A stretch of 64,000 nucleotides of DNA, from assembly GCA_009840945.1 (NCBI GenBank), contig VXMU01000118.1, forward strand, positions 2,454 to 66,453, in the 5' to 3' direction. The notes under the pieces are model-generated. The model was not told the origin of the DNA. It saw nothing but the letters and a program-made list of their open reading frames with translations, and did not search any database. This document shows positions 10,878-64,000 of the stretch, piece by piece. Origin of the DNA: Chloroflexota bacterium (GTDB lineage: Bacteria; Chloroflexota; Dehalococcoidia; UBA2979). The stretch's first letter is position 1. Each line of letters opens with the position of its first letter. A program made the position numbers and the translations under genes.

Positions 10878-10903
10878 GCGCGGGGTGGGGCGAGGATCGG
10901 CCG

Positions 10904-36146: not shown

Positions 36147-36410
36147 ATGGCAGCGAGCTTTGAACGTCAGGGGATCGACTTCTTCCTGGAAGAGCTGATT
36201 GCGGTGCTGGAGCTGCAAGCCGCACAGCCCGCCATCGTCATCGAGCCCCAGAAGATCTACGAGGCGATCGAGGCGCGGCTCAGGGAACGCGACGCCATCA
36301 CCCCGGACGAACACGCCGGCCGGGAGTACGCGTACTCGCTGGTGACGCGGCTCTACTTCCTCGCGAATCGCCCCTGGGACGAGCAGGGCAGCCCGGTCCC
36401 GGCGGGCTAG
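36147..36410 (+). CDS. Small hypothetical protein (87 aa)
   Basis: ORF with coding-like codon bias. Its TAG stop lies inside the IS481 target duplication. I recognise no family. Confidence 0.4.
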   Translation: MAASFERQGIDFFLEELIAVLELQAAQPAIVIEPQKIYEAIEARLRERDAITPDEHAGREYAYSLVTRLYFLANRPWDEQGSPVPAG

Positions 36411-36411
36411 C
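36406..36411. repeat. Left copy of the 6-bp target-site duplication GCTAGC
   Basis: Identical hexamer at 37449-37454, immediately outside the inverted repeats. Confidence 0.85.
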
Positions 36412-37387
36412 TGTACTGACTACAGAGGTGTGAGACACGGCTGACGGGCGGGAGGCCGCCGAGCGAGCCGTGGGGACGGCGTCTGTTGTACCACCTCAGC
36501 CACCCGGCGAGGGCGCGCGTGCGGTGCGCGCTCGTCGGGTAGGCGAAGGCGTATGCCCAGCTGCGCAGCAGCATCTGGATGAAGCGCTCCGCCTTGCCGT
36601 TGGTGCGCGGCGTGTAGGGCCGGGTGCGGAGGTGGCGCAGCCCCCGCTCGGCGCAGCCCTCACGCCAGGCGTGCGAAGCGTACGCGGGCCCGTTGTCCGT
36701 CATCACCGCCTCGACGCTGACGCCCTGCTCGCCGAACCACTGCAGCGCGCGCTCGAGGAAGGCCAGGGCGTCGCCGCGGCGGTCCGTCGGCAGCACCTCG
36801 GCGTAGGCCAGCCGGGAGTGGTCGTCGACGGCGACGTGGACGTGCTGCCAGCCGGCGTAGGGGCTGCGGGTTACTCCGTCGCGGAGGATGCGCTTGCCGA
36901 CGTTGAAGAAGCGCCCCAGTTTCTTGGTGTCGATATGCAGCAGCTCACCCGGGCGCTCACGCTCGTAGCGCACCACGGGCGGCCTGGGCTCGCGCGGCAG
37001 CCGTGAGCGGCCCAGCCGCCGCAGCACCTTCCCGATGGTCGAGGCTGGACGGCCGAGCAGGGCGCCGAGCGTGAGCGGACCTGCGCCACTGCGCTCGCGC
37101 GCCACCACGATCTCGGCCTCCTCGGCGGGGGTGAGTCGGCGCGGCTGGCGCTTCGGCGTCGAGGGGCGTTCGCGCAGCCCTGCCCAGCCGCCTGTGCGGT
37201 AACGCCTGAGCCAGCGGTAGCCCGTGGCGCGACTGGCGCCCACGCTGCTGGCGGCCTCGGCCGGGCTCATGCCGCCGAGCGTGGCATCCACGGCGCGGCA
37301 GCGTGTCTCGTAGGAGTAGCGCATCCGCTTGGGGCGACTGGTGGCATCATGCATCGGGACCTCCTTCGGAGCTTGGAGCTTGTTCAA
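36407..37387 (-). CDS. IS481-family DDE transposase
   Basis: 326-aa ORF with an N-terminal HTH region and DDE residues in HIDTKKLGRF, TDNGPAY and NGKAERF, then RYNRRRPHGSLGG. The likely start is ATG at 37354 (MHDATS...). Confidence 0.92.
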   Translation of the reverse strand: MNKLQAPKEVPMHDATSRPKRMRYSYETRCRAVDATLGGMSPAEAASSVGASRATGYRWLRRYRTGGWAGLRERPSTPKRQPRRLTPAEEAEIVVARERSGAGPLTLGALLGRPASTIGKVLRRLGRSRLPREPRPPVVRYERERPGELLHIDTKKLGRFFNVGKRILRDGVTRSPYAGWQHVHVAVDDHSRLAYAEVLPTDRRGDALAFLERALQWFGEQGVSVEAVMTDNGPAYASHAWREGCAERGLRHLRTRPYTPRTNGKAERFIQMLLRSWAYAFAYPTSAHRTRALAGWLRWYNRRRPHGSLGGLPPVSRVSHLCSQYS

Positions 37388-46765: not shown

Positions 46766-46787
46766 GATGCCGCCCCTTCTCCGACTC

Positions 46788-48524: not shown

Positions 48525-48539
48525 GCGGCGTCGCCCCCG

Positions 48540-49457
48540 TCAGCTCCGGAGCAACGCCAGCGAGTCCAGGAACTCGCGCATGACGTTCACGCATTCCGAA
48601 GGCTGCTGCAGTTGCAGCATGTGAGTGGCGTCGGGGAGAAAGTCATAGTCGACCCCCACGATGTCACCCAGATCGAAGGTAGGCAGGTACGAATACGGGA
48701 GCGTGGGGTCTGCGCCGATGACCTTGACCGGGCACTGGACGGACACGAGGTCCACCAGGACGGCGAACATCCGCGCGTACTCGATGATCTGCGCTTCGTA
48801 TTCGGGTGGACATCTGAGCTCGTACCCGCGTCCGTCGGGGGCTTCGCGGAGTGTTGTTTCCGCGGCGAGGAGCCCGACGCCATCTACGACGTCATGAAAG
48901 GTGGGTGTGAAGCCGATCAGGTCGGCGAAGTTCTGCTTGCTGCGGCAGCGGTTTGACCGGCCCCGCGCCCGTTGCGCCTGATCGATGGCCGCGTCGTCGA
49001 ACTCCTCGTGGAGTACGCCCGGCCTGCGCAAGGGGGGATCGAAGAGCACGAGCGCATCGAGGTTGCCCCCGCTGCTCGGCGCCAGCAGTGCGGCCAGTGA
49101 CGAGACGGAGTGATAGACGCCAACCGTTGGCTTCGGTCCCCACTCAGCGCCGATCGCTTCGATCACAAGGTCGTGGTCGGCCGCCAGCGTGGGGAGGGTG
49201 TGGCCCTCGAGCGGGCCGACCGTGTTCTGGCCGTGGTTCCGCAGGTCGTGGACGACGACATCGAACTCGTCCGTCAGGAGCGACCAGAACGGGTAGTAGA
49301 GGTCAATCGCGAGGCCGTTGCCATGGCTCAGCACCAGTCTCGGTCCGTCCGGATTCCCATGACGGCGCACCCTGATGGCGGTGTCCGCGCCGACCTGGAG
49401 GTCAAGCACGGAGTCGGGCTCGGGCACCTCCCACACGGTCATTGCCGAGTCCATCAC
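48540..49457 (-). CDS. Alpha/beta hydrolase (paralog 1)
   Basis: LVLSHGNGLAIDLYYPFW, nucleophile elbow GVYHSVSS, C-terminal His in DATHMLQLQQP. It is roughly 60% identical by eye to the product of 51648-52538. The start may be ATG 49442. Confidence 0.8.
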   Translation of the reverse strand: MMDSAMTVWEVPEPDSVLDLQVGADTAIRVRRHGNPDGPRLVLSHGNGLAIDLYYPFWSLLTDEFDVVVHDLRNHGQNTVGPLEGHTLPTLAADHDLVIEAIGAEWGPKPTVGVYHSVSSLAALLAPSSGGNLDALVLFDPPLRRPGVLHEEFDDAAIDQAQRARGRSNRCRSKQNFADLIGFTPTFHDVVDGVGLLAAETTLREAPDGRGYELRCPPEYEAQIIEYARMFAVLVDLVSVQCPVKVIGADPTLPYSYLPTFDLGDIVGVDYDFLPDATHMLQLQQPSECVNVMREFLDSLALLRS

Positions 49458-49480
49458 GCAACTCCGGACTTCGCCGCTGC

Positions 49481-50188
49481 CTACCGGTGCAACTCGTAGG
49501 CGACCGCCGCGGCGTACTCGTCATCGCCAAGATCTTCCACGTGCCAGCTTACTCCCGGCGAGTCGGGTAGCACGACAGTGCCGTCCGTACGACCTTCCCG
49601 CACCGCTCGGGGAATCTCAAAGGCGGTCGGTTCCAGCACCAGGCCGGCGCCGTGGGCCTTGAGCAGCGCCTCCTTCATGGTCCAGAGCCTGAAGAACAGG
49701 TGGAGTCGGGGGGCACCGTCGAGCGCGGCGAGCTCGGCGCGCTCCTCGGGTCCGAACGTGGCGTCGACCAGCAGGTCGAAGTTGCGGTGCTCGACGCGCT
49801 CCTCCACGTCCACGCCCACGCGACCCTCGGCCGCAAGTGCTATCAGGCCGTGCCGGCCGCCGTGGCTGACGTTGAAGCCAACGCGCACCGGCTCGCCCCG
49901 CAACCGGGCGAAGGGCTTCCCGTGTGGCGCGATTCCGAACGAGAGCTGGTCATTGCAGCAGCCGAGGTGGCTGGTGAGCAGGGCGCGCAGCGCGGCGCGG
50001 CACAGCGTGAACTGCCGGCGCGGGCCTGCGTAGGCAAACCCGCGCCGGCGGCGATGCTCGGCCTCGTCCAGCAACGCGAGCGCGGCCGACTCACGCGCCG
50101 AATCCTCGGCGAGGTCGACGTGGAATACGGTGACGCTACCCGATGTCTTCAGCGTCTCCCACCAGGCAGCGGGGACACCTGACGACAC
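49481..50188 (-). CDS. Sfp-type 4'-phosphopantetheinyl transferase
   Basis: 235 aa with FNVSHGG, VGVDVEER and WTMKEALLKAHG. Confidence 0.88.
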   Translation of the reverse strand: MSSGVPAAWWETLKTSGSVTVFHVDLAEDSARESAALALLDEAEHRRRRGFAYAGPRRQFTLCRAALRALLTSHLGCCNDQLSFGIAPHGKPFARLRGEPVRVGFNVSHGGRHGLIALAAEGRVGVDVEERVEHRNFDLLVDATFGPEERAELAALDGAPRLHLFFRLWTMKEALLKAHGAGLVLEPTAFEIPRAVREGRTDGTVVLPDSPGVSWHVEDLGDDEYAAAVAYELHR

Positions 50189-50238
50189 GTTCGCGACTGG
50201 GCTTCGTGACCGATCGTTCGGAGGAACGATGGAAGCGG

Positions 50239-50484
50239 TTAGGCGGCCAGGCCGTCCAGGTGCTCGACCAGGTCTCGCGGGGTCAGGAGCTCGGCGAACT
50301 GCTCGCGCGAGATCTCGACACCGAACTCCTCGTTGACGAGCCGCCAGAAGGCGACGATGTCGGCCGAGGCGACGCCCGCGTCTGCCATGTTGCGGTCGAG
50401 GTCCAGCGCGCCACCGGCGCTGCGCCCCTCGATCTCAATGTTGTCGTCGATGATCTTGACGATGCGCTCTGCCGTCGTTGCCAT
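50239..50484 (-). CDS. Discrete acyl carrier protein (81 aa) with an atypical attachment motif
   Basis: ATG 50484 has GGAG 7 nt upstream. The protein has a four-helix ACP-like pattern: ...NMADAGVASADIVAFWRLVNEEFGVEI... GVAS replaces the usual G(L/I)DS. Confidence 0.7.
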   Translation of the reverse strand: MATTAERIVKIIDDNIEIEGRSAGGALDLDRNMADAGVASADIVAFWRLVNEEFGVEISREQFAELLTPRDLVEHLDGLAA

Positions 50485-50646
50485 ATGCGTACTCCGTTCC
50501 GTGCCCATGCCCATTCTCGTGGATGGCACGATGGTACGTCCGAAGTGACGGCACCAGCAACCGGCATTGCCACGAATGGAACAACGAATGAACTCGTTAT
50601 GATCCGTACGTCGGGCAGCATCGGAGCAGGGAGCAGGTGGGCGGCA

Positions 50647-51447
50647 TCACAGGCCCTCGAACCGTGGCTCGCGGCGCTCCGCGAACGCGCGGAACCCCTC
50701 CCTGGTGTCGCGGCTGGCGAAGAGGCCAAGCTGCGCCGTCCACTCATACTCCAGGTAGTGGATCATCGTTAGTTCCGTCGAACGCTGTAAGAGTCTGCGC
50801 ATGGCCGTGTAGGCGAGCGGTGGGCCGCTCGCTATCTTCCGCGCATACGCCAGCGCCTCGTCCAGGAGCTGGTCGTCGGGCACGACACGGTTGGCCAGGC
50901 CCAGCTCCAGGCACCGTTCGGCGCTCACCGGGTCGCCGTCGTAGAGCAGTTCGTGAGCGCGACCCAGGCCGACGATCTGCTGGAGTCGGTAGGCGGCGCC
51001 GAAGTCAGACGCGAGACCGCGTTTGATGAAGATCGATCCCATCCTGGCCGTCTCTGCCATCAGCCGAACGTCGCAGCAGAGCGCGAGGCTGAAGCCACCT
51101 CCGGCCGCCATGCCGTTGACGGCCCCGATGACGGGCACGTCTGATTCCGAGAAGGCCACGGCCACCCGTGTCGACCAACCGCGGCGGTCGAGTCGCTCTT
51201 CACGGGTCCGCACGAACGTGGCGACGGTGAGTCGGCCGCTCTCGCCTATCTCGGCGCCCGCGCAGAACGCGTCCCCCGCCCCGGTGAGCACAAGGGCGTT
51301 GACGTCTTCGCGCTCGTTGGCCTCGGCAAGCGCCTCAACCAGGAGCTGCAGCATCTCCAGGTCCATGGTGTTCATGGCGTCCGGGCGGTTCAGGGTCACA
51401 AGCATGACGCCATCGTCCACGCTCGTGAGGACAGCAGGGTCGGACAT
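50647..51447 (-). CDS. Enoyl-CoA hydratase/isomerase (crotonase) family protein
   Basis: ATG 51447 (MSDPAVLTSVDDGVMLVTLNRPDAMN) with a GGGAG RBS. Oxyanion-hole motifs are LTGAGDAFCAGAEI and NGMAAGGGFSLAL. Confidence 0.88.
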   Translation of the reverse strand: MSDPAVLTSVDDGVMLVTLNRPDAMNTMDLEMLQLLVEALAEANEREDVNALVLTGAGDAFCAGAEIGESGRLTVATFVRTREERLDRRGWSTRVAVAFSESDVPVIGAVNGMAAGGGFSLALCCDVRLMAETARMGSIFIKRGLASDFGAAYRLQQIVGLGRAHELLYDGDPVSAERCLELGLANRVVPDDQLLDEALAYARKIASGPPLAYTAMRRLLQRSTELTMIHYLEYEWTAQLGLFASRDTREGFRAFAERREPRFEGL

Positions 51448-51647
51448 GCGCACTCCCAACTGCTGGTGCTGCGTGAGTGGACCAGACGTTAGCACGACTC
51501 CCACAGCGGTCGTCGTGGTGGGGTGCGATACTCCCGGCTCAAGCCATGCCCCGGGATGGCGCGGCGCGTCGAGCTCCGGGCGGCGGTCCAGACTCAGGCC
51601 GATCTACGCTGCGCGCAGGGCGAAGCGAGGATTCAGGAGCACGGGTC

Positions 51648-52538
51648 ATGTGGCAAGTGCCCGAACCCCTCTCAACGGTGGACGTAGCCGTGGACGAGGA
51701 CACCACCATCGTCCTGCGTCGCCACGGGAATCCCGACGGGCCCCGCCTGGTGCTGAGCCACGGGCTGGGCCTGGCGGTTGACCTCTACTATCCGTTCTGG
51801 TCGCAGCTCACCGCGCAGTTCGACCTGTTCGTCTACGACATGCGGAACCACGGCCAGAACCCGCTCGGGCCGCTTGCCGCGCACACCTTGCCCTCGCTTG
51901 CCCGGGATCACGACCTGGTGCTCGAGGCGGTCGATCGTCACTTCGGTGCGAAACCAAAGGTGGGCGTATGCCACTCCGTCGGAGCGCTCGCGATGCTCCT
52001 GTCACCCAGCAGCGGTGCCGGGCTCTCGGCGCTGGTCCTCTACGACCCGCCCATCAGGAAGCCCAACGTCGACCGCGACGCGTACGACGACGCAGGCGCG
52101 CAACTCGCTGACTCGGCCCGGCGGCGTAGGGAGTGGTTCCCCACAAGAGAGCAATTCATCGAGAGCGCGAACTCCGCTCAGACCTTCGCGCGCGTCGTCC
52201 CCGGGGTGGTTGAATTGCTCGCGGATACTACATTGCGCGACGACCCCGAGGGCGAGGGGTACGTGCTGCGATGTCCCTCGTCGTACGAGGCGCAGATCAT
52301 CGAGTACGGGCGCGTTTTCGTTTCGGTGGTGGACCTGTCTTCGTACCGCTGCCCGATCAAGGTCATCGGCGCGGACCCGACGCTCCCGTTCTCGTATCTC
52401 CCCACGTTCGACCTCCACGAGATGGTGGAGGTCGACTACGACTTCCTGCCCGACACCACCCACTTCCTGCAACTGGAACAGCCCGATGAATGCATCGCGC
52501 TGATGCTCGCGTTCCTCGAGCAGCGGGACCTGCTGTAG
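51648..52538 (+). CDS. Alpha/beta hydrolase (paralog 2), divergent from the crotonase gene
   Basis: ATG 51648 has AGGAG 9 nt upstream. MWQVPEPLSTVDV..., nucleophile elbow GVCHSVGA and DTTHFLQLEQP. Confidence 0.8.
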   Translation: MWQVPEPLSTVDVAVDEDTTIVLRRHGNPDGPRLVLSHGLGLAVDLYYPFWSQLTAQFDLFVYDMRNHGQNPLGPLAAHTLPSLARDHDLVLEAVDRHFGAKPKVGVCHSVGALAMLLSPSSGAGLSALVLYDPPIRKPNVDRDAYDDAGAQLADSARRRREWFPTREQFIESANSAQTFARVVPGVVELLADTTLRDDPEGEGYVLRCPSSYEAQIIEYGRVFVSVVDLSSYRCPIKVIGADPTLPFSYLPTFDLHEMVEVDYDFLPDTTHFLQLEQPDECIALMLAFLEQRDLL

Positions 52539-52751: not shown

Positions 52752-55700
52752 TCAGTTGCCGTCTGTACCGACCCCGGCTGGCTCGTCGCTGCGGACGACG
52801 AGCGGCGTGCCGGCGGGCACGCCCGCGGCGAAGAGCTCGCGGAATGACCGGTTCACGAAGTCGGGCGCGGCGAGGATGTTCGACACCCACGCGCCGCCGT
52901 GGAGGACGTAGATGGCCGTGACGCCGAGGCTTGCCGCGCAGGCATCGAGGTCCCCGACGCTGCCGCCCTCGTAGACCACGAGGCTGAAGCCCTCGGCCAC
53001 TTCGCCACGGAGGCAGGTCGCGAAGGGCTCGGTGACCTCGGGCGCGGGCAGGGCTGGCGTCGCCGGGCCGTCGCTGCGTACGACCAGCGGGGTGAGCGCC
53101 GGGACGCCGTCGGCGAAGAGGGCTCGGAAGGACGCGTTTACGAAGTCGGGCGCGGCGAGGATGTGCGAGACCCACGCGCCCTCGTGCAGCACGTAGAGCG
53201 CCGTGATGTGGCGGCCCTCCGCGCAAGCTACGAGGTCGTCGACGCTCCCGCCCTCGTAGGCCACGAGGCTGAAGCCGACGCTGACCGCGCCGCGCAGGCA
53301 GTCCGCAGGCGGCCCGACCTCACCCAGCGCCACGCGGTAGACGCGCTCGCGGCTGCCGTCCGCCGAGGTCACGGTGACCGCGATCTCATCGAGACCGGCG
53401 AGTGCGACCTGGTGGCCCTCGGCCGCCTCGTCGGCGTCGGCGGGCGTGACGGCCACCGTTGCGCCGTCCCGCACGGCCTCCGCGACGACCGTCGTCGAGG
53501 TGACGCCCGCATCCGCGACGCCTTCGTACTCCCTGCGTGCGGGGTCGAACGTGCCGATGTCGATGCCTTCGAGGGTGAGCGAGGCGAGGCGGGCGTCGAA
53601 GGCGTCCGGCATGTTGTAGCTGTAGACCCGGTCGTCGTTCTCGTCGGCGACGTACATCACCTCGCCCTCCGACCAGATCCCGCGCGGGCTGTTGTTGCCG
53701 ATGCGGCCCAGCTCCACGAAGTCCTCGTCGACGACGCGTTCGAGGGCGGGCGGCTCCTCGGGCGGGCCGTCGGTGGGCAGTGCGGGGAGGCGGTAGGCGT
53801 AGATGCGCTTGGGGTCGTGGTTGGAGACCCAGACCGTGACGCCGTCCGACCAGATGCCGTGCGGGCTCCCGTTCGCGTCGTGCAGTTCGTACTCGCCGAG
53901 GAACTCGCCGCTCGCGAGGTCGTAGGCGAAGAGCCCGTTCTTGCCGCCGTCGAGGACCCACATCACGCCGTCGCCGGCCCAGATGCCGCGCGCGTCGCGG
54001 TTGCGCCTCGTAAGCGCGATGTCGCGCTCCTCGACGCGCGCGCCGGTCGCGAGGCCGTAGGCGAAGAGCTGCTCCTGCCCGCTGTCGGAGACCCATGCCG
54101 TCGCGCCGTCCGACCAGATGCCGCGGGGCGCGCGGTTCGTCTCGTCGAGGGCGAACTCACGCTCCTCGACGCGCTCGGCGGTCGCGAGGTCGTAGGCGTA
54201 GACCCCGTCGTTCGCGCCGCTGCCGTTCTGGGCGACCCAGAGCACCGCGCCGTCGCCCCACAGCCCGGTCGGTTCGCCGTTGCCGGCCGCGAGGAGGTCG
54301 ATGTCGCGCGTGACGTTCCACTCGAAGTCGACGTCGCTCGGGGTGGGGCCCGAGGGGCCCCCGCCCGGCGCCCCGACGAAGAAGCCGCCGCCTCCGCCGA
54401 AGGAGGACCTGGCGACCCTGGCGACGGTGATGATGACGGTCACGGAGTCGTCGGTTACGCCGGACGGGTTGTAGCCGGAGTTGAACCCGTCGTGCACATC
54501 GACGGTGACGTTGTGGGTCTCCTGCACGTCCGGGTCCAGGACGGCCTTCGTCCGGATCTGACCCGTCTCCGGGTCGATCTCGAAGTTGTTGGCGTCGGGG
54601 CCGCTGAGCGAGTAGGTGAGGACGTCGTCCGGGTCGGGGTCGTCTGCCTTCACCGGTGGGCCGACGGACCGTCCGGCCTGCGTCCCCTGGCCGACCGAGC
54701 GTGGCACCTCGGCCTCGTCGAAGGCGGGGGCGGAGTTCGACGAGGGCCTGCTACTGCTCTCCCCGATCCGCGAGTCGAGTTCCGCCGACGCGGACTTGTT
54801 GCCGCCGCGGTTGTCGGAGTAGTCCACGCTCACCCGCAGGTAGCTGCCGACATCGTCGGCGACCGCGGTGTACGAGCTCGAGGTGGCGCCGGCGATGTCG
54901 TGCCAGCTCGAGCGGTTGCTGGACCGCGCCCACTGCCAGGCCTCGCCGGTCACGCCGTCGTCGCCGTCGCTGAGCTCGGCCTCGAACTGCGTCCCATTCC
55001 ACCCGCGCGGCGGCGAGAGGGTGACCACGCCCGCCTCCTCCACGTCCGTCACCGCCACGGTCACGTCGAGGCGTCCCTCGAGGCCGCCGGGGTCGGTCGC
55101 GGTCACGGTGACCGGGAAGCTCGTGTTGCCGTCCTCGTAGTCCGGTGGCGTCGCGAAGTAGAGCTGGCCGCGGTCGGAGATCCAGAAGTCGTTGCTGCTG
55201 ACCGACCACTCGAGGGTGTCGCGCTCGGGGTCGGCGGCCGTGTAGGTGGCGACCGCGGCGCTGCTGTTCTCGGCGATGGACGGCGAGGTGTCGCCGCTGA
55301 CCACCGGCGCCTCGTTCACGTTGGTCACCGAAATCGTCACGGTCCGGGTGGCGTCGACGGCGTCCATGTCGTCGTCGCCGTTCTGGTCGCGGCCGTCGGT
55401 GACCTGCACGGTGACGCGGTACGTCCGCTTGCCCTCGAAGTCCAGGGTCACGTCCTGCGCGAGCCGGATCTGCCCGGTGCCGTCGTCGATGGTGAACGAA
55501 GCGGCGTCCGTCCCGGTGAGCGAGTAGGCGAGGGGGTCGTTGACAGCCGAGTCGCCCGCGTTCAGGTCGGTCGCGGCCACCGGGTCGCCGATCGCGTCGC
55601 CGCCCTGCGCGTCCTCGGGCACGTCGCGCGTGCCGGTCTCCGTCGCCGGGAACGCCGGCGCCGAGTTGACCGGCGGCGGGTCGCCGACGCGCGACGAGAC

Positions 55701-58700
55701 CTCCGAGGCGGTCTTGTTGTCGCCGTGGCCGTCGTTGTAGGAGGCCGTGGCGCGGATGAAGTTGCCGGCGTCGACCAGCGTCGGGGTGTACCTGTCGCTC
55801 GTCGCTCCCACCAGGTTGACCCAGTCCGTGCGGCCGTTGGGCGAGCGGTGCCAGGCCCAGCTGATCGAGCCCGGGACCGGCTCGTCGTCGTCTTCGAGGA
55901 CGGCCGTCACCTCGACGCGGGCCTGGATGGTGGCGGTGAGGGTGGTGAGCGTGACGCTGCCGGGCTCGTCTTCGTTCCCGACGGTGATCGTCACGTCGAT
56001 CGAGTCGTCGATGGCGGCCGAGGTGTTGCCGAGGCCGTCCTTGCCGTCATGCACGTCGACCGTGACCTGGTAGCTGGACTTCGTCTCGAAGTCGAGCGGC
56101 TCCTGCACGCGCAGCTGGCCGGTGCCGGCGACGATGCTGAAGGACGCGGCGTCCGTCCCGCTCAGCAGGTAGGTGAGCCGGTCGTTCTCGGGGTCCTCGG
56201 CGGCTACGGGGTCGCCGATGCTCGTGCCGGCCGAGCTGTTCTCCGGCACGGTTCGCGCGCCGTCCTCGCCGGCGGGGAAGGTCGGCTGCTGGTTCTCGCC
56301 GAAGACGCGCAGCGAGGTGATCCCCTCGGCGCGCTTGCCGCTCCCGCGGTTATCCGTGTAGCCGACGGACGCGCGGAGGAAGAAGCCCGCGTCGGCCAGC
56401 ACCGTGGTGTAGCTGCTCGTGGTCGCGCTGGAGGTCGTGTTGGGGATGTTGGTCCAGCCCGTGCGGCCGTCGCGGGAGCGCGCCCACCGCCAGCTGCGGC
56501 CGCTGATGCTGCCGTCGCCGTCGGCGAGGGTGGCCTGCACCGTCACGCCGACCCCCGGCTCGGGCTCGGAGAGCGTGACCACGCCTTCCTCCTCCACGTC
56601 GAGGACGCGGACCCCGACGGTCGTCGAGGCGTCGACCACGCGCTCGGTCTCGACGGTGCCCTGGTCGTCCCTGCCGTCGCTCACGTTGACGGGCACGAGC
56701 AGCAGCCCCGTCGTGGTCTCGAAGTCCAGCGCCTGCACGGTCCGCAGCTGGCCGGTGGTCGGGTGGATCTCGAAGAGCGCGCCGTCGCCCCCCTCGCCGA
56801 TCGCGAACGTGAGCGGGTCGTTGTCGCGGTCGGTCGCCGTCACGCGGTCGCCGACGTCCACGCCGGCGTCCGTCTCCGGGATGTTCTGTGCGCTGCCCGT
56901 GCGGATGCGAGGCGGCGCGTTGGGGATCGGGTCGGGCGTGATCGCGGCGGTCGCTTCGCTCTCGGCCGACTTCCCCCCGCCCCGGCGGTCCGTGTACGGG
57001 TTCACGATGGCGCGGATCTCGAGGCTCGTCTCGTCCTCGTCCGCGACGTAGGTGTAGGAGCCGAGGCCGGTGTTCGAGTGGATCAGCTGCTGCCACGCGC
57101 CGCCCGACGTCCGCGTCTGGATGACCCAGGCGAACCCGCCCTCGCCGGGAACCTGGGTGAGCACGATGCCGCCGTCCGGGTCGGAGATCGTGAACGTGAC
57201 GCTCTCCCCGACGGCCGGGTTGAGGTTGCTGACGGAGATCGCGCCGTCCTCCTCCACGTCCTGCACGGTCAGCGTGACGTCGTGACGGACGGCGCGGCGG
57301 GTGGGCCCGCTCTGGCGGTCGGTCGCTACGACCGTGTACTGGTAGACGTTGTCGCCGTTCGCGTCGTCCGGGTCCTCGAAGTTGGGTGTCTCCCTGAAGA
57401 CGACGTTGCCGCCGAGGTCGATCTCGAAGTCGAGGCGGTCCGGACCCTCGAGCGACCAGTCGACGAAGCCCTCCTCGTCGCGCGCGGTGTACGAGACGAT
57501 GACCGGGAAGGCGTAGGGAGGCTCCTGGAAGTTCGCGTCCAGGGTTGCGTTGTGCTCGTCGAAGGAGAGGGTGACCGAGGGGCTCCCGGTGAACTCGGGC
57601 TGCTCGTTCACGTCGTCCACCTGGACCAGGAATTCGTCGCCGATCTCCCCGAGCTGCCCGACGTTCTCAGCCGTGTTGTCGGGCGGCGTGTTGGCGTCCC
57701 TGGCCAGGATGATCAGCTCGTAGACGTTGCTGGTGGAGCCCGAGCCGGTCGACTGCTCGAAGTCCGGTAGCTCGGCGAACCGCAGGACGCCCTGGCCGTC
57801 GGCGTTCTTGGTGATCGTGAAGTCGCTGGCGTCGGCGCCGGCGAGCTCCCACGTGATCACCTCGTTCTCCTCGTCGCGGGCGGTGAAGACGGCGACGTCG
57901 TCGATGTCGGCGAGGGCCACGCCCGCGTCGTACTCGATCTCGTTGTAGAGCGCGTTGGGCAGGTCTGTGATCTCCGGCGTCTCGTCGATGTTGGTGACGG
58001 TGACGGCGATCTGGTATGGCCTGATCCTCGATGTGACCCCGGGGGTGTCCCGCAGGCGCATGGTGACCTTGTAGACGTTGTCGCCCTCCGTTTGCCCCGA
58101 CTCGGGGGAGTCTGCGGGCATCTCGTAGTTGGGGCGGTTCTTGAACCGGAGGCGACCGAAGCGGTCGCCAATGGTGGTGACGCTCGAAGCCTCGAGGTCG
58201 CTGGTGTCCAGGCCTGCCAGCGTCTCGTAGAAGATGTCCTGGCCTTCCTCGTCGTGCCCCCGGTACTCGCCGATGAGGGAGTCCCACGAGGCGGCGTCGT
58301 AGGGGATCTCGGCGAAGGTGGGATTGAGGTCGCCCTGGATGAGGACGGGGATCTCGTTGAGGCCCGTCACCGTGACCGTGACCTCGAAGGTGCCGACGCT
58401 GTTGCTCTCGCCCTGCTGGTCGTCCGCCCGCACCTGGATGACGTACTCGTTGTTCCCGTCCATGTCGTCGGGTCGCTCGAAGTCCGGCCGCGCCGTCATC
58501 TCGTCCGTGACCGGGTGGGTGACCGCCGCGATGTCGAACGACAGCACGCCTGTCGAGGCGTTGATGCTGAAGTGCGCCGCGTCGTCGCCGGCCACCGACC
58601 AGCTCACCGTGTCGTTGTCGTCGTCATACGCGGTGAACGTCGCCACCTCGTAGTCCGAGGCCGGGATGTCGCCCGGGACCCGGGAGAAGTCGATCTCCTG

Positions 58701-60065
58701 GAAGCTCGGCGCCATGTCCCCGCTGACCACCGGCGTCTCGTTGAGGTCGTTGACCATGACCGCGACGATCTGGGTGTCCTCCAGCCGTGGGCTCGCGTTG
58801 TCCCTCACCCGCACCGTCAGGTCGTAGGTGTTGTTGCCGCCCGTGTCGTCCGGCATCTCGTAGTCCGGCGGGCTCTTGAACGTGAGCTCGGCCGTCCCGT
58901 TCACGTTCGAGGTGATGTTGAAGTCACCCGCGTCGTTGCCCGAGAGGTCCCACGACATCGTCCCGGTCGTCATGTCCGGGTCCGTCGCGATGTACGTCGC
59001 GACCACCCCCGTGGCGTTCTCGTCGAAGGAGACGGTCGCGGGGGCGGTGGTCAGCGTCGGCGTCTCGTTGACGTCCGTGACGGTCACGGCGAGGGACTTC
59101 GAGACGCTGAGGTGGTTCGACGCTCCCCGCGCGCCGTCGATGCCGTTGTCCGTGACCGTGACCGTGACGTTGTAGACCCCGTCGCCGCCGGCGTCCTGCC
59201 GGTCCTCGAAGTTCGGAGCGTTCTTGAAGGTGAGCACGCCGCTGGTCGAGCCGATCTCGAAGAAACCCCCGTCGTCGGCGCTCTCCACGGACCAGGTCAG
59301 CGTGTTGGCCGAGTCGTTGGTCTCGCCGTTGCTGTCCGGGTCGTCTGCGTCGTAGTCGAGGACCGAGGTCTGGTTCTCGGCGACGGAGATGGCGGTCTGG
59401 GTGGTCTCGATGGTGGGCTGCTCGTTCACGTCCGTGAGGCTGATGATCACCGAGATGGTGTCGTCGATGTTGGTGTTGGTGTTGCCGGCGGCGTCCTTGC
59501 TGTCCCGCACGCGCACCGTAACGCTGTAATTGACGGTGCCTTCATAGTTGTAGTTGATGCCGGACTTGGTCTTGATCTGGCCGGTGCCGGAATCGATGGT
59601 GAACGATGACTCGTTGCCGCCCGTCCCGAACGAGTAGGTGAGCGTGTCGTTGTCGTCGTCGCTGGCAGCCACGGCCGAGCCGACGTTCACATTCGCTCCG
59701 CTGTTCTCCGCCACCTCCCGCGTTGCCGGCGAGGTCTCGTCGAACTCCGGTTCGTTGTTGCCGGCGCTGATCTGGCCCGTCACAGCGTTGGCGCTCTTGC
59801 CCGACCCCTGGGGGTCCGTGTAGGACGCCGTGGCGCGCAGGAACCTGTTCACGTCCACGGCCACCGGTTCATAGGTATTGGATGTCGCCCCGCTGATGGG
59901 GGCGAAGGGCCCTGAGGCCGAGGCCCCCAGCGCCCACTGCCAGCTCACGCTGGTCGGAGTCCCGTCCAGATCAGTCACCGACGCCGTCAGCGTCTCGCCT
60001 CCCGATTCGGTGCCCGCGATCGTCACCGTGCCGGGCTCGTCGAGGTTGTTGAGGTTGATGATCAC
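52752..60065 (-). CDS. Giant cadherin-repeat surface protein, C-terminal 2437-aa reading frame (continues the upstream frame after a frameshift)
   Basis: The frame contains:
- Repeated cadherin-like units (..ENxxxGxxIGxPVxAxDxDxDxLTYSLxGxDAxxFxIDxxTGQI..YxVTVxVxDG..DDxIxVTIxV).
- W-x-W Ig-like modules.
- A 5-blade GIWSDG propeller.
- A cadherin-like beta-sandwich.
- Two copies of an unassigned C-terminal domain. Confidence 0.9.
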   Translation of the reverse strand: MIINLNNLDEPGTVTIAGTESGGETLTASVTDLDGTPTSVSWQWALGASASGPFAPISGATSNTYEPVAVDVNRFLRATASYTDPQGSGKSANAVTGQISAGNNEPEFDETSPATREVAENSGANVNVGSAVAASDDDNDTLTYSFGTGGNESSFTIDSGTGQIKTKSGINYNYEGTVNYSVTVRVRDSKDAAGNTNTNIDDTISVIISLTDVNEQPTIETTQTAISVAENQTSVLDYDADDPDSNGETNDSANTLTWSVESADDGGFFEIGSTSGVLTFKNAPNFEDRQDAGGDGVYNVTVTVTDNGIDGARGASNHLSVSKSLAVTVTDVNETPTLTTAPATVSFDENATGVVATYIATDPDMTTGTMSWDLSGNDAGDFNITSNVNGTAELTFKSPPDYEMPDDTGGNNTYDLTVRVRDNASPRLEDTQIVAVMVNDLNETPVVSGDMAPSFQEIDFSRVPGDIPASDYEVATFTAYDDDNDTVSWSVAGDDAAHFSINASTGVLSFDIAAVTHPVTDEMTARPDFERPDDMDGNNEYVIQVRADDQQGESNSVGTFEVTVTVTGLNEIPVLIQGDLNPTFAEIPYDAASWDSLIGEYRGHDEEGQDIFYETLAGLDTSDLEASSVTTIGDRFGRLRFKNRPNYEMPADSPESGQTEGDNVYKVTMRLRDTPGVTSRIRPYQIAVTVTNIDETPEITDLPNALYNEIEYDAGVALADIDDVAVFTARDEENEVITWELAGADASDFTITKNADGQGVLRFAELPDFEQSTGSGSTSNVYELIILARDANTPPDNTAENVGQLGEIGDEFLVQVDDVNEQPEFTGSPSVTLSFDEHNATLDANFQEPPYAFPVIVSYTARDEEGFVDWSLEGPDRLDFEIDLGGNVVFRETPNFEDPDDANGDNVYQYTVVATDRQSGPTRRAVRHDVTLTVQDVEEDGAISVSNLNPAVGESVTFTISDPDGGIVLTQVPGEGGFAWVIQTRTSGGAWQQLIHSNTGLGSYTYVADEDETSLEIRAIVNPYTDRRGGGKSAESEATAAITPDPIPNAPPRIRTGSAQNIPETDAGVDVGDRVTATDRDNDPLTFAIGEGGDGALFEIHPTTGQLRTVQALDFETTTGLLLVPVNVSDGRDDQGTVETERVVDASTTVGVRVLDVEEEGVVTLSEPEPGVGVTVQATLADGDGSISGRSWRWARSRDGRTGWTNIPNTTSSATTSSYTTVLADAGFFLRASVGYTDNRGSGKRAEGITSLRVFGENQQPTFPAGEDGARTVPENSSAGTSIGDPVAAEDPENDRLTYLLSGTDAASFSIVAGTGQLRVQEPLDFETKSSYQVTVDVHDGKDGLGNTSAAIDDSIDVTITVGNEDEPGSVTLTTLTATIQARVEVTAVLEDDDEPVPGSISWAWHRSPNGRTDWVNLVGATSDRYTPTLVDAGNFIRATASYNDGHGDNKTASEVSSRVGDPPPVNSAPAFPATETGTRDVPEDAQGGDAIGDPVAATDLNAGDSAVNDPLAYSLTGTDAASFTIDDGTGQIRLAQDVTLDFEGKRTYRVTVQVTDGRDQNGDDDMDAVDATRTVTISVTNVNEAPVVSGDTSPSIAENSSAAVATYTAADPERDTLEWSVSSNDFWISDRGQLYFATPPDYEDGNTSFPVTVTATDPGGLEGRLDVTVAVTDVEEAGVVTLSPPRGWNGTQFEAELSDGDDGVTGEAWQWARSSNRSSWHDIAGATSSSYTAVADDVGSYLRVSVDYSDNRGGNKSASAELDSRIGESSSRPSSNSAPAFDEAEVPRSVGQGTQAGRSVGPPVKADDPDPDDVLTYSLSGPDANNFEIDPETGQIRTKAVLDPDVQETHNVTVDVHDGFNSGYNPSGVTDDSVTVIITVARVARSSFGGGGGFFVGAPGGGPSGPTPSDVDFEWNVTRDIDLLAAGNGEPTGLWGDGAVLWVAQNGSGANDGVYAYDLATAERVEEREFALDETNRAPRGIWSDGATAWVSDSGQEQLFAYGLATGARVEERDIALTRRNRDARGIWAGDGVMWVLDGGKNGLFAYDLASGEFLGEYELHDANGSPHGIWSDGVTVWVSNHDPKRIYAYRLPALPTDGPPEEPPALERVVDEDFVELGRIGNNSPRGIWSEGEVMYVADENDDRVYSYNMPDAFDARLASLTLEGIDIGTFDPARREYEGVADAGVTSTTVVAEAVRDGATVAVTPADADEAAEGHQVALAGLDEIAVTVTSADGSRERVYRVALGEVGPPADCLRGAVSVGFSLVAYEGGSVDDLVACAEGRHITALYVLHEGAWVSHILAAPDFVNASFRALFADGVPALTPLVVRSDGPATPALPAPEVTEPFATCLRGEVAEGFSLVVYEGGSVGDLDACAASLGVTAIYVLHGGAWVSNILAAPDFVNRSFRELFAAGVPAGTPLVVRSDEPAGVGTDGN

Positions 60066-62424
60066 GGTGATGCTGTCGTCGATCGTCGTGTCGTTCTGGT
60101 TGGCGGCCGTTCTTGCCGTCGTGCACGCGCAAGGTGATGGAGAAGCCGGACTTGGTCTCGTAGTCGTAGGTCACGCCCGACTTCGTCGAGAACTGCCGGG
60201 TCGCGGCGCTAAACGTGAAGGACGAACTGTCGGCCCCGGCTACCGAGTAGATCAGCGTGTCACCATCGACGTCGGTGGCCGGCACGGGATCGCCGATGTT
60301 CACGCTGGCGCCCGTGTTCTCGTCGAGCATGAAGGTGACGCTCGACCCGTCGTCAAACGTCGGCGCGGTGTTGAGGATCTGGTTGGTGACCGCGTTCGCC
60401 ATCCGGTTGCCCTGGAGGGTGTCGCCGTAGACGACCGAGGCCCGCAGGTACATGCCGACGTCGGCGGGGACCACGGTGTAGGTCGCGGAGTTGGCGTTGG
60501 TGATGTCGTCGAACGAACCAGTCGCCGAGGCGCCCCGCGCCCACTGCCAGGTGATGGAGCCGATATTGCCGTCCGGGTCGGAGACGGTGGCCGTCAGTGT
60601 CGCCCCGACCGCGAGGTCGCCCGCGATGGTGACGGAGCCGGCTTCTTCGACGTTTGTGAGGCTGATGGTGACGTTGATGCTGTCGTCGACCGCCGTATCG
60701 ACGTTGCCGTTGGCGTCCTTGTTGTCGCGGACGTTGACGGTCACCGTGTAGGTCTTCTTGGTGCTCTCGAAGTCGTAGTCGATGCCGCTCTTGGCCTGGA
60801 TCTGGCCGCTGTTCGCGACGATCTGGAAGGACGAGGCGTCCGCGCCGCTCAGCGTGTAGGTGAGCGTGTCGCCGTCGTCGTCGCTGGCTGTGAAGGGCAT
60901 CCCGACGTTCGTGCCGGCGGCGCTGTTCTCGGACAGCGTTGGCATGGTTGACAGGCCACTGTCGAACGCGGGCTCGTTGTTCACGGTGTTGTTGGTCACC
61001 GACTCGTTGGACAGGGCGGCGGCGGCGTTGCCGGCCTCGTCCTGGACCGGCGTGGCGCCCATCCCGGTCGGGACGGTGTAGCTCACGGTGACCGTCTCCC
61101 CGGCGATGACCGTCGACGCCAGCGCCAGCGTCACCGCCATGCCGCTGATCGAGACGCTCGACGGCGCGGCCGACGTGCCCGCGACCGTCACGGAGTAGGC
61201 GCTGGCGAGGGGCGTCGAGGCAGAGTCGAGCGTCTCATCGTAGGTCAGGACCAGCGAGGTCTCGTTTACGGTCGCCGTGTCCAGCGTCGGCGCGGTGCTG
61301 TCGGTCGGGAGGATCGTGCCCTTGATCCGCATCTTGACGAAGAACCGGTTGTCCTCGGTCCAGGCGTCCGATGCGCTGGCCCTCCAGAAGATCGTGTCGC
61401 CGATCGACCATCCGGCTGCCCCGCCGCCGTCATCACCCGTTGTCGAAACCCGGTCGATGCTTCCATTGAGAGAGCCCCCGCTCCCGTTGTCGACGAACAC
61501 GGCGTACGTGGTGCCGGGGTCAAGCGTCGTGCCCTCGGCCGCCGTGAATGTCTTCGCCCCAGCGGTGCTGACGTCGTCGGGGTTCGTCAGCGTGGCGTGC
61601 ACCGCGTTCGGGGTTCCGTCGGTGTTCGTCGTGAAGATCCTGACGCGGACCGTCGTCGCCGAGCTTGTACCTACGAGCCTTATCTCCACGCTGTTGAGGC
61701 CGTAGCCCAGCGTGTTGCTGCCCGTCGTGAACGGCTGCGCCTGGGCCGTGTTTGTTTCGCTCGCATCCGTCTGACCCCAGTTCGCGACCAGCGTGACCTC
61801 GTTCCGCGGGACGGAGCGCAGTTGCGCGCCGCCGTCCTGCACGGCCGGCTCCGACCCCGCCTCGGGCGTGGGTTCGGGCGTGGGCTCGGACGTCGGCTCG
61901 GGGGTGGTGGCCTCGGGCAGCGTGATGTCAGTCCGGCCCGAGCGGGAGCCGAGGTCGTTCGAGCGGATCCGGTAGCGGTAGTGCTCCCCGCGGTTCACGT
62001 CCTCGTCGGTGTAGGTCAGCGTCGAGCCGTCGACGGTGGCGAGGAGAGCCATGCGCGCGCCCTCGACCTCCATCTCGCGGCGGTAGACGGCGTACTCGTC
62101 GGGCGTGCAGTCGGGCGAGGCCTCCCAGGTCAGCACGACCGCCGCGCCGTCCTCGCTGGGCGCGCTCGCCAGGTTGACCGGCGGCACGCTGCACGTCGCG
62201 TCGGCGCGGACGCCGGTGGTGCGCGCGAGCAGCACCGCCAGCAGCGCGACGAGCACGAACGCCAGCGCGAGCAGGCGGAACGCGCTTCGGCCACCGCGGG
62301 AGCCGCGGCCGGACCCTCGCGCGCCCCGCGTGCGCGGACCCCCCGCGATGAGCCGTGCGGCGAGCCGCAGGGGGAGCCTGAGGGCGCGGGACGGGAGGTC
62401 GTGCCAGGGCGGGTGGCGCTTCAT
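59971..62424 (-). CDS. Giant cadherin-repeat surface protein, N-terminal reading frame (signal anchor, FN3, SwmB-type Ig repeat, first cadherin units); frame breaks near 60102-60108
   Basis: The probable start is ATG 62424 (MKRHPPW...), followed by the hydrophobic anchor FRLLALAFVLVALLAVLLA. Next come an FN3-like segment (VVLTWEASPD...YAVYRRE...YRYRIRS) and a SwmB-type repeat (APTLDTATVNETSLVLTYDETLD...VTVSYTVP...VQDEAGNAA). The last ~35 codons before the stop at 59971 are out-of-frame junk. Confidence 0.85.
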   Translation of the reverse strand: MKRHPPWHDLPSRALRLPLRLAARLIAGGPRTRGARGSGRGSRGGRSAFRLLALAFVLVALLAVLLARTTGVRADATCSVPPVNLASAPSEDGAAVVLTWEASPDCTPDEYAVYRREMEVEGARMALLATVDGSTLTYTDEDVNRGEHYRYRIRSNDLGSRSGRTDITLPEATTPEPTSEPTPEPTPEAGSEPAVQDGGAQLRSVPRNEVTLVANWGQTDASETNTAQAQPFTTGSNTLGYGLNSVEIRLVGTSSATTVRVRIFTTNTDGTPNAVHATLTNPDDVSTAGAKTFTAAEGTTLDPGTTYAVFVDNGSGGSLNGSIDRVSTTGDDGGGAAGWSIGDTIFWRASASDAWTEDNRFFVKMRIKGTILPTDSTAPTLDTATVNETSLVLTYDETLDSASTPLASAYSVTVAGTSAAPSSVSISGMAVTLALASTVIAGETVTVSYTVPTGMGATPVQDEAGNAAAALSNESVTNNTVNNEPAFDSGLSTMPTLSENSAAGTNVGMPFTASDDDGDTLTYTLSGADASSFQIVANSGQIQAKSGIDYDFESTKKTYTVTVNVRDNKDANGNVDTAVDDSINVTISLTNVEEAGSVTIAGDLAVGATLTATVSDPDGNIGSITWQWARGASATGSFDDITNANSATYTVVPADVGMYLRASVVYGDTLQGNRMANAVTNQILNTAPTFDDGSSVTFMLDENTGASVNIGDPVPATDVDGDTLIYSVAGADSSSFTFSAATRQFSTKSGVTYDYETKSGFSITLRVHDGKNGRQPERHDDRRQHHRDHQPQQPRRARHGDDRGHRIGRRDADGVGD

Positions 62425-62682
62425 CCAGTCGTACACGGGGCACCACCCTCGGGAGATGCTCCGGCGGGACTGACGTTCGCCCGTGGCGGTCGGTTCGCCG
62501 CGATCAGCCAGCAGAGCCCGGGCGTTCTGTTGTCCAACGCGGAGCATCAATGCGGGCTCAAACGATAGACGACGGGACGCACGAGACTGTCAGAGATCTA
62601 TGAGATACGGCCCCAGAGGCGTAAAGTATCTGTTAGTATTTCGTGACGGCGTTCACCAATACCGAATGACAGGAGGGGAACG

Positions 62683-64000
62683 ATGGTCGAGGAAAACACC
62701 CCGCCGGCGCCCGAGGCCCAGGCTCTCCGCGAACGCCTCTCCCGGCTGAGCGAGGCCAGCGCCCGCATCAACGAGAGCCTCGACTTCAACGTCGTCCTCC
62801 AGGAGACCATCGACAACGCGCGACGCCTGACCAATGCCCGATACGGTGTGATCGCGACGACCGACGAGGCCGGCGGCCTGGACGCGCTCCTCACCTCCGG
62901 CACGACCGAAGAGCAGCACGATGTGCTCGTCACGCACCCCGGCGGGATGAGGATCTTCGATCACTTCAGCCAGCTCTCGGCGGCTCTGCGTGTCGAGAAC
63001 TACGGCGAATACGCCGAGTCGGTTGGAATCGATGGCCAGCTGCCGATGACCGTGTTCTCCGGTCTGGCGGCGCCGGTGAGACACCGGGACGAGCTGGTGG
63101 GAATCATCTGGCTGGGACACGACCGGGCGGACCAGGCGTTCAGCGATGAGGACATCGAGACGATGGTCATGTTCGCCTCGCAGGCGGCGCTGGTCATCGC
63201 CAACGCCCGCCGGCACCGCGATGTGCAGCGGGCCCGCGCGGACCTCGAGACCCTGGTGAACACGGCTCCGGTCGGGGTCGTGGTGGTCGACGCAACGACG
63301 GGGGATCTCGTGTCGGTCAACCAGGAGGCGAGGAGGCTCGTAGACGTCCTCAGCCCCGGTCAGCCGCCCGCGGAACTCCTCGCAGCGTTGACCCTGCACC
63401 GAGCGGATGGGCGCGAGGTCTCGCTGCGCGACTTCCCGCTGGCGGAGGCGCTCCGAGGCGGAGAGACGGTGCGAGGCGAGGAGATCACCCTCTCGATGGG
63501 CGAGGACCGCTCGCTGACGGTCCTGCTCAACGCCACTCCCATCGTGACCGAGAACGGCGAGCTGGAGCGGTTCGTCGCCACGGTGCAGGACATGACGCCG
63601 CTCAAGGAGCTGGAGCGGCTGCGCGCCGAGTTTCTCGCCATGGTGAGCCACGAGCTGCGCGCTCCGCTGACCTCCGTCAAGGGCTCGATCGCCACGCTCC
63701 TGAACCCCTCGAGCCCGCTGAACCCGGGCGAGGTGCTCCAGTTCCACCGCATCATCGACTCGCAGACGGACCAGATGCGGGAGCTCATCGCCGACCTGCT
63801 CGATGTCGCGCGCATCGACACCGGCACGCTCAGCGTCGCCCCGGAGCCCACGGACCTCGCGACCCTCGTGGGCGACGCCCGCGAGGCCTTCCAGAGCGGG
63901 GGCGGTCAGCACACGCTCCTCATCGACCTCGAGCCCGAGCTGCCGCTGGTTATGGCCGACCGGCTGCGCATGGTGCAGGTGCTGAACAACCTGCTGTTCA
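62683..64000 (+). CDS. Sensor histidine kinase with GAF and PAS domains (3' end off-window)
   Basis: Absent from the track because there is no stop in the window. My translation from ATG 62683 (AGGAGG 6 nt upstream) gives MVEENTPPAPEAQALRERLSRLSEASARINESLDF..., which is GAF-like. It continues with LETLVNTAPVGVVVVDATTGDLVSVNQEARRL (PAS-like) and the H-box EFLAMVSHELRAPLTSVKG. Confidence 0.85.
   Translation, partial: MVEENTPPAPEAQALRERLSRLSEASARINESLDFNVVLQETIDNARRLTNARYGVIATTDEAGGLDALLTSGTTEEQHDVLVTHPGGMRIFDHFSQLSAALRVENYGEYAESVGIDGQLPMTVFSGLAAPVRHRDELVGIIWLGHDRADQAFSDEDIETMVMFASQAALVIANARRHRDVQRARADLETLVNTAPVGVVVVDATTGDLVSVNQEARRLVDVLSPGQPPAELLAALTLHRADGREVSLRDFPLAEALRGGETVRGEEITLSMGEDRSLTVLLNATPIVTENGELERFVATVQDMTPLKELERLRAEFLAMVSHELRAPLTSVKGSIATLLNPSSPLNPGEVLQFHRIIDSQTDQMRELIADLLDVARIDTGTLSVAPEPTDLATLVGDAREAFQSGGGQHTLLIDLEPELPLVMADRLRMVQVLNNLLF

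Follow-up and report, generated by a model that had tools for sequence, protein, structure and literature searches.

The 64,000-nucleotide stretch of contig VXMU01000118.1 analyzed here (assembly GCA_009840945.1, positions 2,454 to 66,453; hereafter the window) carries on its minus strand a giant gene, 52752..62424, for a repeat protein predicted to be exported. The last ~530 residues of the product form a cassette that consists of a poly-Gly hinge, a five-bladed β-propeller, a cadherin-like β-sandwich, and two copies of a terminal domain. Sequence comparison identifies the gene as a member of a large paralogous family defined by this C-terminal cassette, not a one-off composite. Giant cadherin/Ig-repeat surface proteins are already known, and the family-defining tail is the new element. 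Taken alone, this gene is an ordinary, here frameshifted, member of the family, and the interest rests on the tail rather than on this copy.

Gene structure and domain architecture

The initial annotation had proposed that two minus-strand open reading frames (ORFs), 52752..60065 (2437 amino acids, aa) and 59971..62550 (859 aa, with the start ATG placed at 62424), form one gene of about 3220 codons interrupted by a single frameshift. This proved correct. The ORFs overlap by 95 nt and their translations read as a single repeat protein cut in two. Removal of one G at approximately position 60108 gave a 9672-nt ORF of 3223 codons and a stop, with no internal stops. The extra base (context GACGGCAAGAAC-G-GCCGCCAACCAG) sits in the sequence GAC GGC AAG AAC G GCC GCC AAC CAG, at a site (60105..60111, minus strand) outside homopolymer runs and any repeat tract. 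The repaired junction reads VHDGKN|AANQNDTTIDDSITVIINLNNLDEPG, the usual end of a cadherin repeat. It aligned without gaps (48 of 81 residues identical) to an intact 3213-aa ortholog at locus L004, and the 230 aa around the break gave single in-frame high-scoring segment pairs (HSPs) with L004 (55%) and locus L028 (52%), which argues that the repair is right. The L004 protein is 67% identical to the window protein over residues 446–3218 in one HSP. The frameshift is private to the window sequence; a protein database search for near-identical proteins across the junction returned a best match of just 57% identity.

Three explanations of the break were tried and rejected. Programmed frameshifting is unlikely, as a +1 shift would be needed and AAG AAC G GCC GCC contains neither a slippery nor a stop-codon motif. 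Chimeric assembly was considered with the aid of L001, a 203-kb ENA contig that is syntenic with the window at 94–98% nucleotide identity. Colinearity with L001 is lost ~15–30 nt from the frameshift, but L004 is colinear across the site (one HSP of 2798 columns), so the window arrangement is ancestral and L001 is a rearranged or degraded copy. A long-standing pseudogene is ruled out by the ratio of nonsynonymous to synonymous substitution rates (dN/dS) between the window and L001, with values of 0.21 in the stalk, 0.31 in the cassette, and 0.08 in the neighboring kinase; these indicate that purifying selection acted on the giant gene until very recently. The 1-nt insertion is either a sequence error or a very recent inactivation, and we consider the two about equally probable. 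In L001 the orthologous giant gene (2340..11902) is split into at least eight called ORFs, through decay or through error in the 10x assembly. In the window, the strand opposite the giant gene carries a 1623-codon ORF (52899..57770, plus strand); it is rich in Arg, Gly, and Val, as expected of a 70% GC gene read backwards, and is without evidence of being a gene.

The domain order and modules that had been listed for the repaired protein were recovered, with one region reassigned. All parts described below are encoded on the minus strand. The N-terminal export signal (residues 1–74; 62203..62424), as read from the translation, combines an Arg-rich n-region with a hydrophobic core (residues 49–67) and a probable signal peptidase site, VRA|DATC. 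The homologous signal in locus L035 reads ...AHA|DPAC, and most full-length paralogs in closed chromosomes open with classical cleavable Sec signal peptides (e.g., ...VGA|QT and VRA|QS). Given the VRA|D site and these paralogs, the hydrophobic segment is probably a Sec signal peptide cut at VRA|D rather than the "signal anchor" first proposed. The paralog signals make the N terminus an unlikely tether.

Residues 75–172 (61909..62202) had been called FN3-like. All seven weak PDB sequence matches of this region are FN3 domains (best E 0.0035), a Pfam scan of it gave no match, and the domain is 78% identical to its counterpart in L004; the label is weakly supported. A Thr/Pro/Glu-rich linker (residues ~173–200; 61825..61908) is evident in the translation. 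The β-rich region of about 200 aa that follows had been left unassigned, and here the earlier description did not hold: residues 218–370 (61315..61773) are a choice-of-anchor R domain (NCBIfam NF041539, E 2.3e-25, 89.4 bits against a cutoff of 30, profile positions 10–155 of 155). Next is the SwmB-type Ig repeat (SWM, residues 374–453; 61066..61305), for which profile matches (PF13753 SWM_repeat, E 4.4e-16; TIGR02059, E 8e-11) bear out the first assignment. The FN3-like and SWM domains are shared with L004.

Choice-of-anchor domains, by the NCBIfam class definition, precede C-terminal anchors. The R domain of the window protein is absent from the orthologs in L004 and L001 and recurs in other cassette proteins, sometimes in more than six copies, which indicates that the N-terminal part is shuffled among close relatives; in protein P0112, a choice-of-anchor domain directly precedes the hinge and cassette. 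From these comparisons, close relatives exchange the N-terminal head and keep the tail constant. Window segment 61874..60093 spans the coding sequence for choice-of-anchor R, SWM, and the initial cadherin/AIR9 units. It is not colinear with L001 2913..4565, and the two genomes are 94–98% identical on both flanks.

The stalk (residues 500–2663; 54435..60927) is built from cadherin-like repeats and AIR9/SCAB-Ig "W-x-W" Ig modules. A self-trained hidden Markov model counted 14 of the former and six of the latter, the same numbers as in the initial annotation. Pfam matched Cadherin (PF00028) in nine stretches (E 2e-73, 243 bits) and SCAB-Ig and IG_AIR9 at ~1e-15. Linkers rich in Asp, Asn, and Glu (e.g., DVNEQP, DxDxD) are visible in the sequence. 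The stalk is probably stiffened by Ca2+.

The C-terminal cassette and its family

A Gly-rich hinge (SSFGGGGGFFVGAPGGGPSGP; residues 2673–2693; 54345..54407), previously noted as a linker and legible in the translation, marks where the variable part gives way to the conserved cassette. In the family consensus, a poly-Gly run is followed by PTPSxVDFEW, for which the window equivalent is GGGGGFFVGAPGGGPSGPTPSDVDFEW. F28, W30, and D35 are invariant in a 27-sequence alignment of the cassette, as are four Cys across the two terminal domains.

The five-bladed propeller (residues ~2694–2942; 53598..54344) carries a repeated G-I-W-S-D-G-x-T-x-W-V motif. An AlphaFold2 (AF2) model of the whole cassette has five blades, in agreement with the number first proposed; its mean predicted local distance difference test score (pLDDT) is 72, with the propeller blocks mostly at 80–93. 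The best Foldseek matches are five-bladed glutaminyl cyclases of bacteria and plants (3mbr, 3nol; TM score 0.67–0.69, 12–16% identity), followed by NHL and WD40 propellers. Neither Pfam nor PDB sequences gave a match of the propeller to the cyclases, and the likeness is at fold level alone. The blades also weakly resemble virginiamycin B (Vgb) lyase (E 8e-6; the NCBIfam match is below threshold). An enzymatic propeller was rejected, because these likenesses give no basis for catalysis. Four stretches of the blades match just positions 39–59 of PF22729 (NCH3, "NACHT C-terminal helical domain 3"; E 7e-9); this family is listed in the precomputed annotations of most family members, for which the label is misleading. 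The cadherin-like β-sandwich (PF12733, residues 2946–3031; 53331..53588) was assigned by Pfam with E 3.6e-8 (34 bits against a cutoff of 24), as the initial annotation had it.

When the last 531 residues were used as the query, 951 proteins matched at E<1e-5. The best 120 of these are 59–94% identical to the query, and 113 of the 120 cover at least 92% of the cassette. Ahead of the cassette, the N-terminal parts are mutually unrelated and include FN3, cadherin, Calx-beta, AIR9, and choice-of-anchor R domains, and a PEP-utilizing enzyme domain.

The protein ends in two copies of an α/β domain of ~83 aa, residues 3040–3122 (53058..53306) and 3135–3217 (52773..53021), the second followed by six residues and the stop. 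The copies are identical at 62 of 88 positions, and they had been described as unassigned. That description stands: neither the cassette nor the terminal domain was found described in Pfam (2025 copy), NCBIfam 20, PDB, or BFVD. The last 190 residues gave chance-level Pfam matches alone at E<=10, the last 558 residues gave only the Vgb lyase match mentioned above in NCBIfam, and a terminal-domain profile found no PDB sequence at E<=10. Modeled by AF2 from a 34-sequence alignment, the domain has a b-a-b-b-a-b topology, with pLDDT 95.3 and a predicted TM score (pTM) of 0.84. Foldseek found no significant match for this model (PDB best E 0.48, TM 0.33; BFVD best E 0.37), which makes the domain a candidate new fold. 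The two invariant Cys of each copy would fit an extracytoplasmic disulfide. Literature word searches for the cassette or for giant adhesins of sponge Chloroflexota, incomplete in their coverage, returned nothing specific.

A terminal-domain profile searched against 1.84 billion representatives matched 877 at E<=1e-3, of which 172 reached E<=1e-30; each represents a cluster at 50% identity. Architectures were inspected for the best 147 of the 877. Most have two copies at the extreme C terminus, with a median of five residues after the last copy, in proteins of up to 5146 aa. The sandwich and the propeller are both present in 100 of the 147. The other 47 have no propeller, and the longer among these are leucine-rich repeat (LRR), subtilase S8 (with P-domain), Spondin_N, Calx-beta, RCC1, and 8xFN3 proteins. 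In a few proteins the domain is followed by a long tail or lies internally in three to five copies. P0245 and P0251 have five copies of a divergent, Cys-less version with an IGAPDFVN motif, four internal and one at the extreme C terminus; P0251 also has a repeat-rich N-terminal region. The Cys-less variant of P0245, used as a query for wider relatives of the terminal domain, found nothing.

A second example lies within the window. A tblastn search with the cassette identified a minus-strand gene (19694..22024) for a protein with a signal peptide, an animal-type heme peroxidase domain (PF03098, E 3.5e-147), and one terminal domain at its extreme C terminus, 46–54% identical to the copies in the giant gene. 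The terminal domain is thus an independent C-terminal module. A 63%-identical peroxidase in locus L046 has no terminal-domain match adjoining its C-terminal end.

Species-representative genomes contain 335 stretches that match the cassette, nearly all in Dehalococcoidia, Tepidiformaceae, or metagenome-assembled genomes named "Chloroflexi bacterium SB06xx." Overall, the cassette is almost confined to Dehalococcoidia genomes of sponge association. Among the loci kept, chromosomes OZ244720.1 and OZ253575.1 have at least 10 and at least eight copies, respectively. In closed chromosomes, cassette genes encode 1000 to >3900 aa and are often in tandem. Cassettes of 61–62% identity also occur at L045 (VYDD01000266.1) and L059 (VYDD01000098.1), on short, low-coverage contigs of "Gammaproteobacteria bacterium SB0675_bin_31"; these may reflect mis-binning or lateral transfer.

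The SB06xx bins derive from the sponge Ircinia ramosa, according to PMC11706023. The window also contains an ORF (1027..3051, plus strand) in which a GPP34 (Golgi phosphoprotein 3) domain is joined to a cytochrome P450, and the same source reports the GPP34–P450 fusion from sponge symbionts only and GPP34 in 97% of sponge Dehalococcoidia. On the strength of the Ircinia-derived relatives and this fusion, the window comes from a sponge symbiont of the Chloroflexota, most likely one of the Dehalococcoidia. The cultured relatives, Tepidiforma, have a monoderm envelope that includes peptidoglycan and an S-layer (PMC10284905).

Proposed role of the cassette

We propose, with slightly less than even confidence, that the cassette works as a common module by which proteins exported through Sec are attached or docked non-covalently. 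The case rests on the conserved, duplicated tail, the unrelated exported cargoes, the many paralogs per genome, the Sec signals, the lack of another anchor, and the monoderm envelope, with peptidoglycan and an S-layer, of cultured relatives. The giant protein would be exported by Sec, and its signal peptide probably cleaved at VRA|D. The cassette, or minimally the tandem terminal domain, would then fasten many different exported cargoes (adhesion repeats, LRR, RCC1, spondin, subtilase, peroxidase) non-covalently to a single shared partner. That partner would most likely be on the monoderm envelope of the symbiont: peptidoglycan, a secondary polymer, the S-layer, or a receptor protein. The variable N-terminal head (FN3-like, choice-of-anchor R, SWM) would project outward into the sponge matrix.

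Profile searches had been suggested as a way to reveal a routine, already-described adhesin family with a known secretion partner, and no such family was found. Among known anchors and secretion tags, RTX, LPXTG, SLH, type IX secretion system (T9SS), and PEP-CTERM were rejected, as they gave no Pfam or NCBIfam matches. A Pfam scan of the whole protein at E<=0.01 had no match to RTX (HemolysinCabind) or to a type I secretion system (T1SS) signal. The C terminus (...PLVVRSDEPAGVGTDGN) has neither an LPXTG motif nor a hydrophobic tail, and Gram_pos_anchor did not match. SLH, CWB2, LysM, and SH3b wall-binding modules had no Pfam match, and the terminal module showed no likeness to them by Foldseek or PDB profile.

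The proposed arrangement can be set against several known systems. RTX adhesins of the LapA/MpIBP/FrhA type resemble the window protein in their thousands of residues, long Ca2+-binding arrays of Ig/cadherin-like extenders, distinct end modules, and presumed attachment to hosts or surfaces. Unlike them, the window protein has no RTX nonapeptides, C-terminal T1SS signal, N-terminal retention module, or adjacent T1SS genes; it has an N-terminal Sec signal and is expected in a monoderm. The SLH proteins of Bacillota and the CWB2 "Cwp" family of Clostridioides difficile are closer in logic: many exported proteins per genome, with unrelated functional parts, share the same tandem small end module in a monoderm cell with an S-layer. 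They differ in that there is no likeness of sequence or structure, the module is present here in two copies rather than three, a propeller and sandwich usually precede it, and wall binding is here a prediction from architecture. Dockerin-bearing cellulosomal proteins likewise join diverse cargo to a conserved, internally duplicated C-terminal module, which suggests docking to a common receptor, but a dockerin is an EF-hand-like Ca2+ module of ~70 aa, whereas here an 83-aa α/β domain occurs twice and no cohesin-like partner was identified. Choice-of-anchor R proteins (NF041539) share a bona fide domain with the window protein and pair it with alternative C-terminal anchors; here the C-terminal element is a new cassette, not PEP-CTERM, LPXTG, a T9SS tail, or the like. 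SwmB-type giant proteins of marine Synechococcus have the SWM_repeat/TIGR02059 unit and giant size in common with the window protein, which has a single SWM unit and an otherwise unrelated architecture. The eukaryote-like proteins of sponge symbionts (Robbins et al., 2021, PMC8163846; PMC11706023) share the habitat and PF00028, PF12733, fn3, Calx-beta, and LRR domains, and cadherin and FN3 proteins are enriched in sponge symbionts (PMC8163846). The relevant parts of these two sources give Pfam domain counts and describe neither the cassette nor the terminal domain that links such proteins.

Several observations weigh against attachment by the cassette. The terminal domain is acidic by residue count, which would preclude simple charge binding to anionic wall polymers. 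At 530 aa and with a propeller, the module far exceeds known wall anchors in size. As propellers typically serve as ligand-binding heads, the cassette could be a functional tip rather than a foot. Across 67 loci there is no conserved neighboring receptor, sortase-like enzyme, or exporter. The n-region of the window protein is unusually long and is followed by a hydrophobic core of 19 residues, so that its own signal could stay as a membrane anchor. Attachment itself is predicted from the pattern of architecture. Finally, the gene is frameshifted in the window and the L001 copy, that of the closest relative, has many breaks; the giant protein may not be made at all in this species.

The main rival, which we consider unlikely, is an inverted polarity. 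The N-terminal segment would be a membrane signal anchor, the cadherin/Ig array a stalk, and the cassette a distal ligand-binding tip, in which the propeller "lectin" and its accessory domains recognize one conserved target in the sponge host or on neighboring cells; the variable N-terminal parts would set length and spacing only. An Arg-rich n-region of 48 residues with its 19-residue core is long for a cleaved signal. Propellers are common ligand binders, the structural matches here include NHL/lectin-like folds, and there is a weak sequence match to a fucose lectin. The conservation of the cassette (59–94%) would fit recognition of one invariant ligand, and the N-terminal partners are mostly extender-type β-sandwich repeats. 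Against this, paralogs have short classical cleavable signals and the window protein has a good −3/−1 site (VRA|D). The terminal domain also ends subtilase, heme peroxidase, and LRR/RCC1 proteins that have no stalk or propeller, which is the pattern of a tag and not of a tip, and the choice-of-anchor R domain is at the N-terminal end, the usual place of heads in C-terminally anchored proteins. Alternatively, the terminal domains might be a secretion or sorting signal, comparable to the T9SS C-terminal domain or to PEP-CTERM/exosortase, that is removed or modified during export by an unrecognized Chloroflexota export or processing system. The position of the domain at the extreme C terminus of diverse cargo, its conserved sequence, and its invariant residues are in keeping with such a signal, and PMC8163846 describes sponge symbionts as rich in eukaryote-like proteins with few recognizable secretion systems. 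We regard this as improbable: in an expected monoderm whose cargo carries Sec signals a second translocation step is unneeded, the domain is usually a duplicated, well-folded 83-aa unit (pLDDT 95) and is sometimes internal or long-tailed, and no conserved partner gene is found near the 67 loci.

Whether the window copy delivers a cassette at all depends on the status of the frameshift. If it is real, this strain carries either a recently formed pseudogene or a variant of the gene in an off state. The exportable product would be just an 817-residue N-terminal fragment with a 49-residue out-of-frame tail, and no cassette would be produced, as the downstream ORF lacks a signal peptide. We give this somewhat less credence than its opposite. 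The extra base is outside the homopolymers and simple repeats where sequencing errors concentrate, and it lies next to the homology breakpoint with L001 described above. The L001 copy has seven indels of lengths that are not multiples of three in 7.3 colinear kb, and more upstream, between flanking genes that are mostly intact; with at least 8–10 paralogs per genome in related chromosomes, one copy could be cheaply lost. However, exactly one lesion is present in 9.7 kb, with long open frames matching homologs on both sides, and the dN/dS values imply selection over nearly all of the divergence from L001. L001 is itself a "10x" contig whose frame breaks may be assembly errors, and the L004 ortholog is intact.

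Returning to attachment by the cassette, a broader form of the proposal can be put forward, although we doubt it more than we trust it. The tandem terminal domain may be a new fold that tags an unrecognized surface-display or docking system of sponge-symbiotic Dehalococcoidia. If so, a eukaryote-like repertoire of cadherin, FN3, Calx-beta, LRR, RCC1, spondin, subtilase, and animal-type peroxidase proteins would be arrayed on one receptor of the envelope or host matrix, and paralogs and strains would shuffle their N-terminal cargo at the poly-Gly boundary. Few recognizable secretion systems are present to account for the display and delivery of the eukaryote-like proteins (cadherin, FN3, LRR, and others) in which sponge symbionts are enriched (PMC8163846). 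That many such proteins of one dominant symbiont class end in the same undescribed C-terminal module offers a physical link between them and an experimental handle. The terminal domain is also a candidate for inclusion in domain databases and a possible target of structure determination, with 877 clusters, a pLDDT of 95, and no structural neighbor in PDB or BFVD.

Gene neighborhood

The giant gene is transcribed divergently from a GAF-PAS-HisKA sensor kinase (Pfam; 62683..64000, plus strand) that runs off the window, as had been reported. In the orthologous locus L001, the kinase is a hybrid with receiver and Trans_reg_C domains. Kinase homologs (44–60% identical) lie within 10 kb of cassette genes in about 8–9 of 67 loci, in inconsistent orientation and from different genomes (L012, L016, L018, L026, L037, L054, L059, and L066). 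The association could point to coupled regulation, or could follow simply from the kinase family being large.

The initial annotation had also noted that secretion and anchoring genes are missing nearby, and none of the T1SS (ABC transporter/MFP/TolC) or sortase families was found among the larger window ORFs scanned. Clustering of 2172 flanking ORFs from the 67 loci yielded no partner family that recurred beyond 10 loci; the most frequent ones were kinase-like, transposase-like, or antisense ORFs.

Downstream of the giant gene are two α/β hydrolases, an enoyl-CoA hydratase, a phosphopantetheinyl transferase (PPTase), a permease, and a 2872-aa type I polyketide synthase (PKS). At locus L002 ("Chloroflexi bacterium SB0666_bin_12"), the same hydratase (96% aa identity) and hydrolase (86%) adjoin a cassette gene. 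The PKS domain order, read by eye over window 38147..52538, is KS-AT...KR-ACP-KS-AT, and the cluster is syntenic in L001 and partly so in L002. Just past the PKS is an IS481-family transposase (36407..37387, minus strand; rve, LZ_Tnp_IS481). In other genomes, too, ORFs resembling transposases turn up repeatedly near cassette genes.

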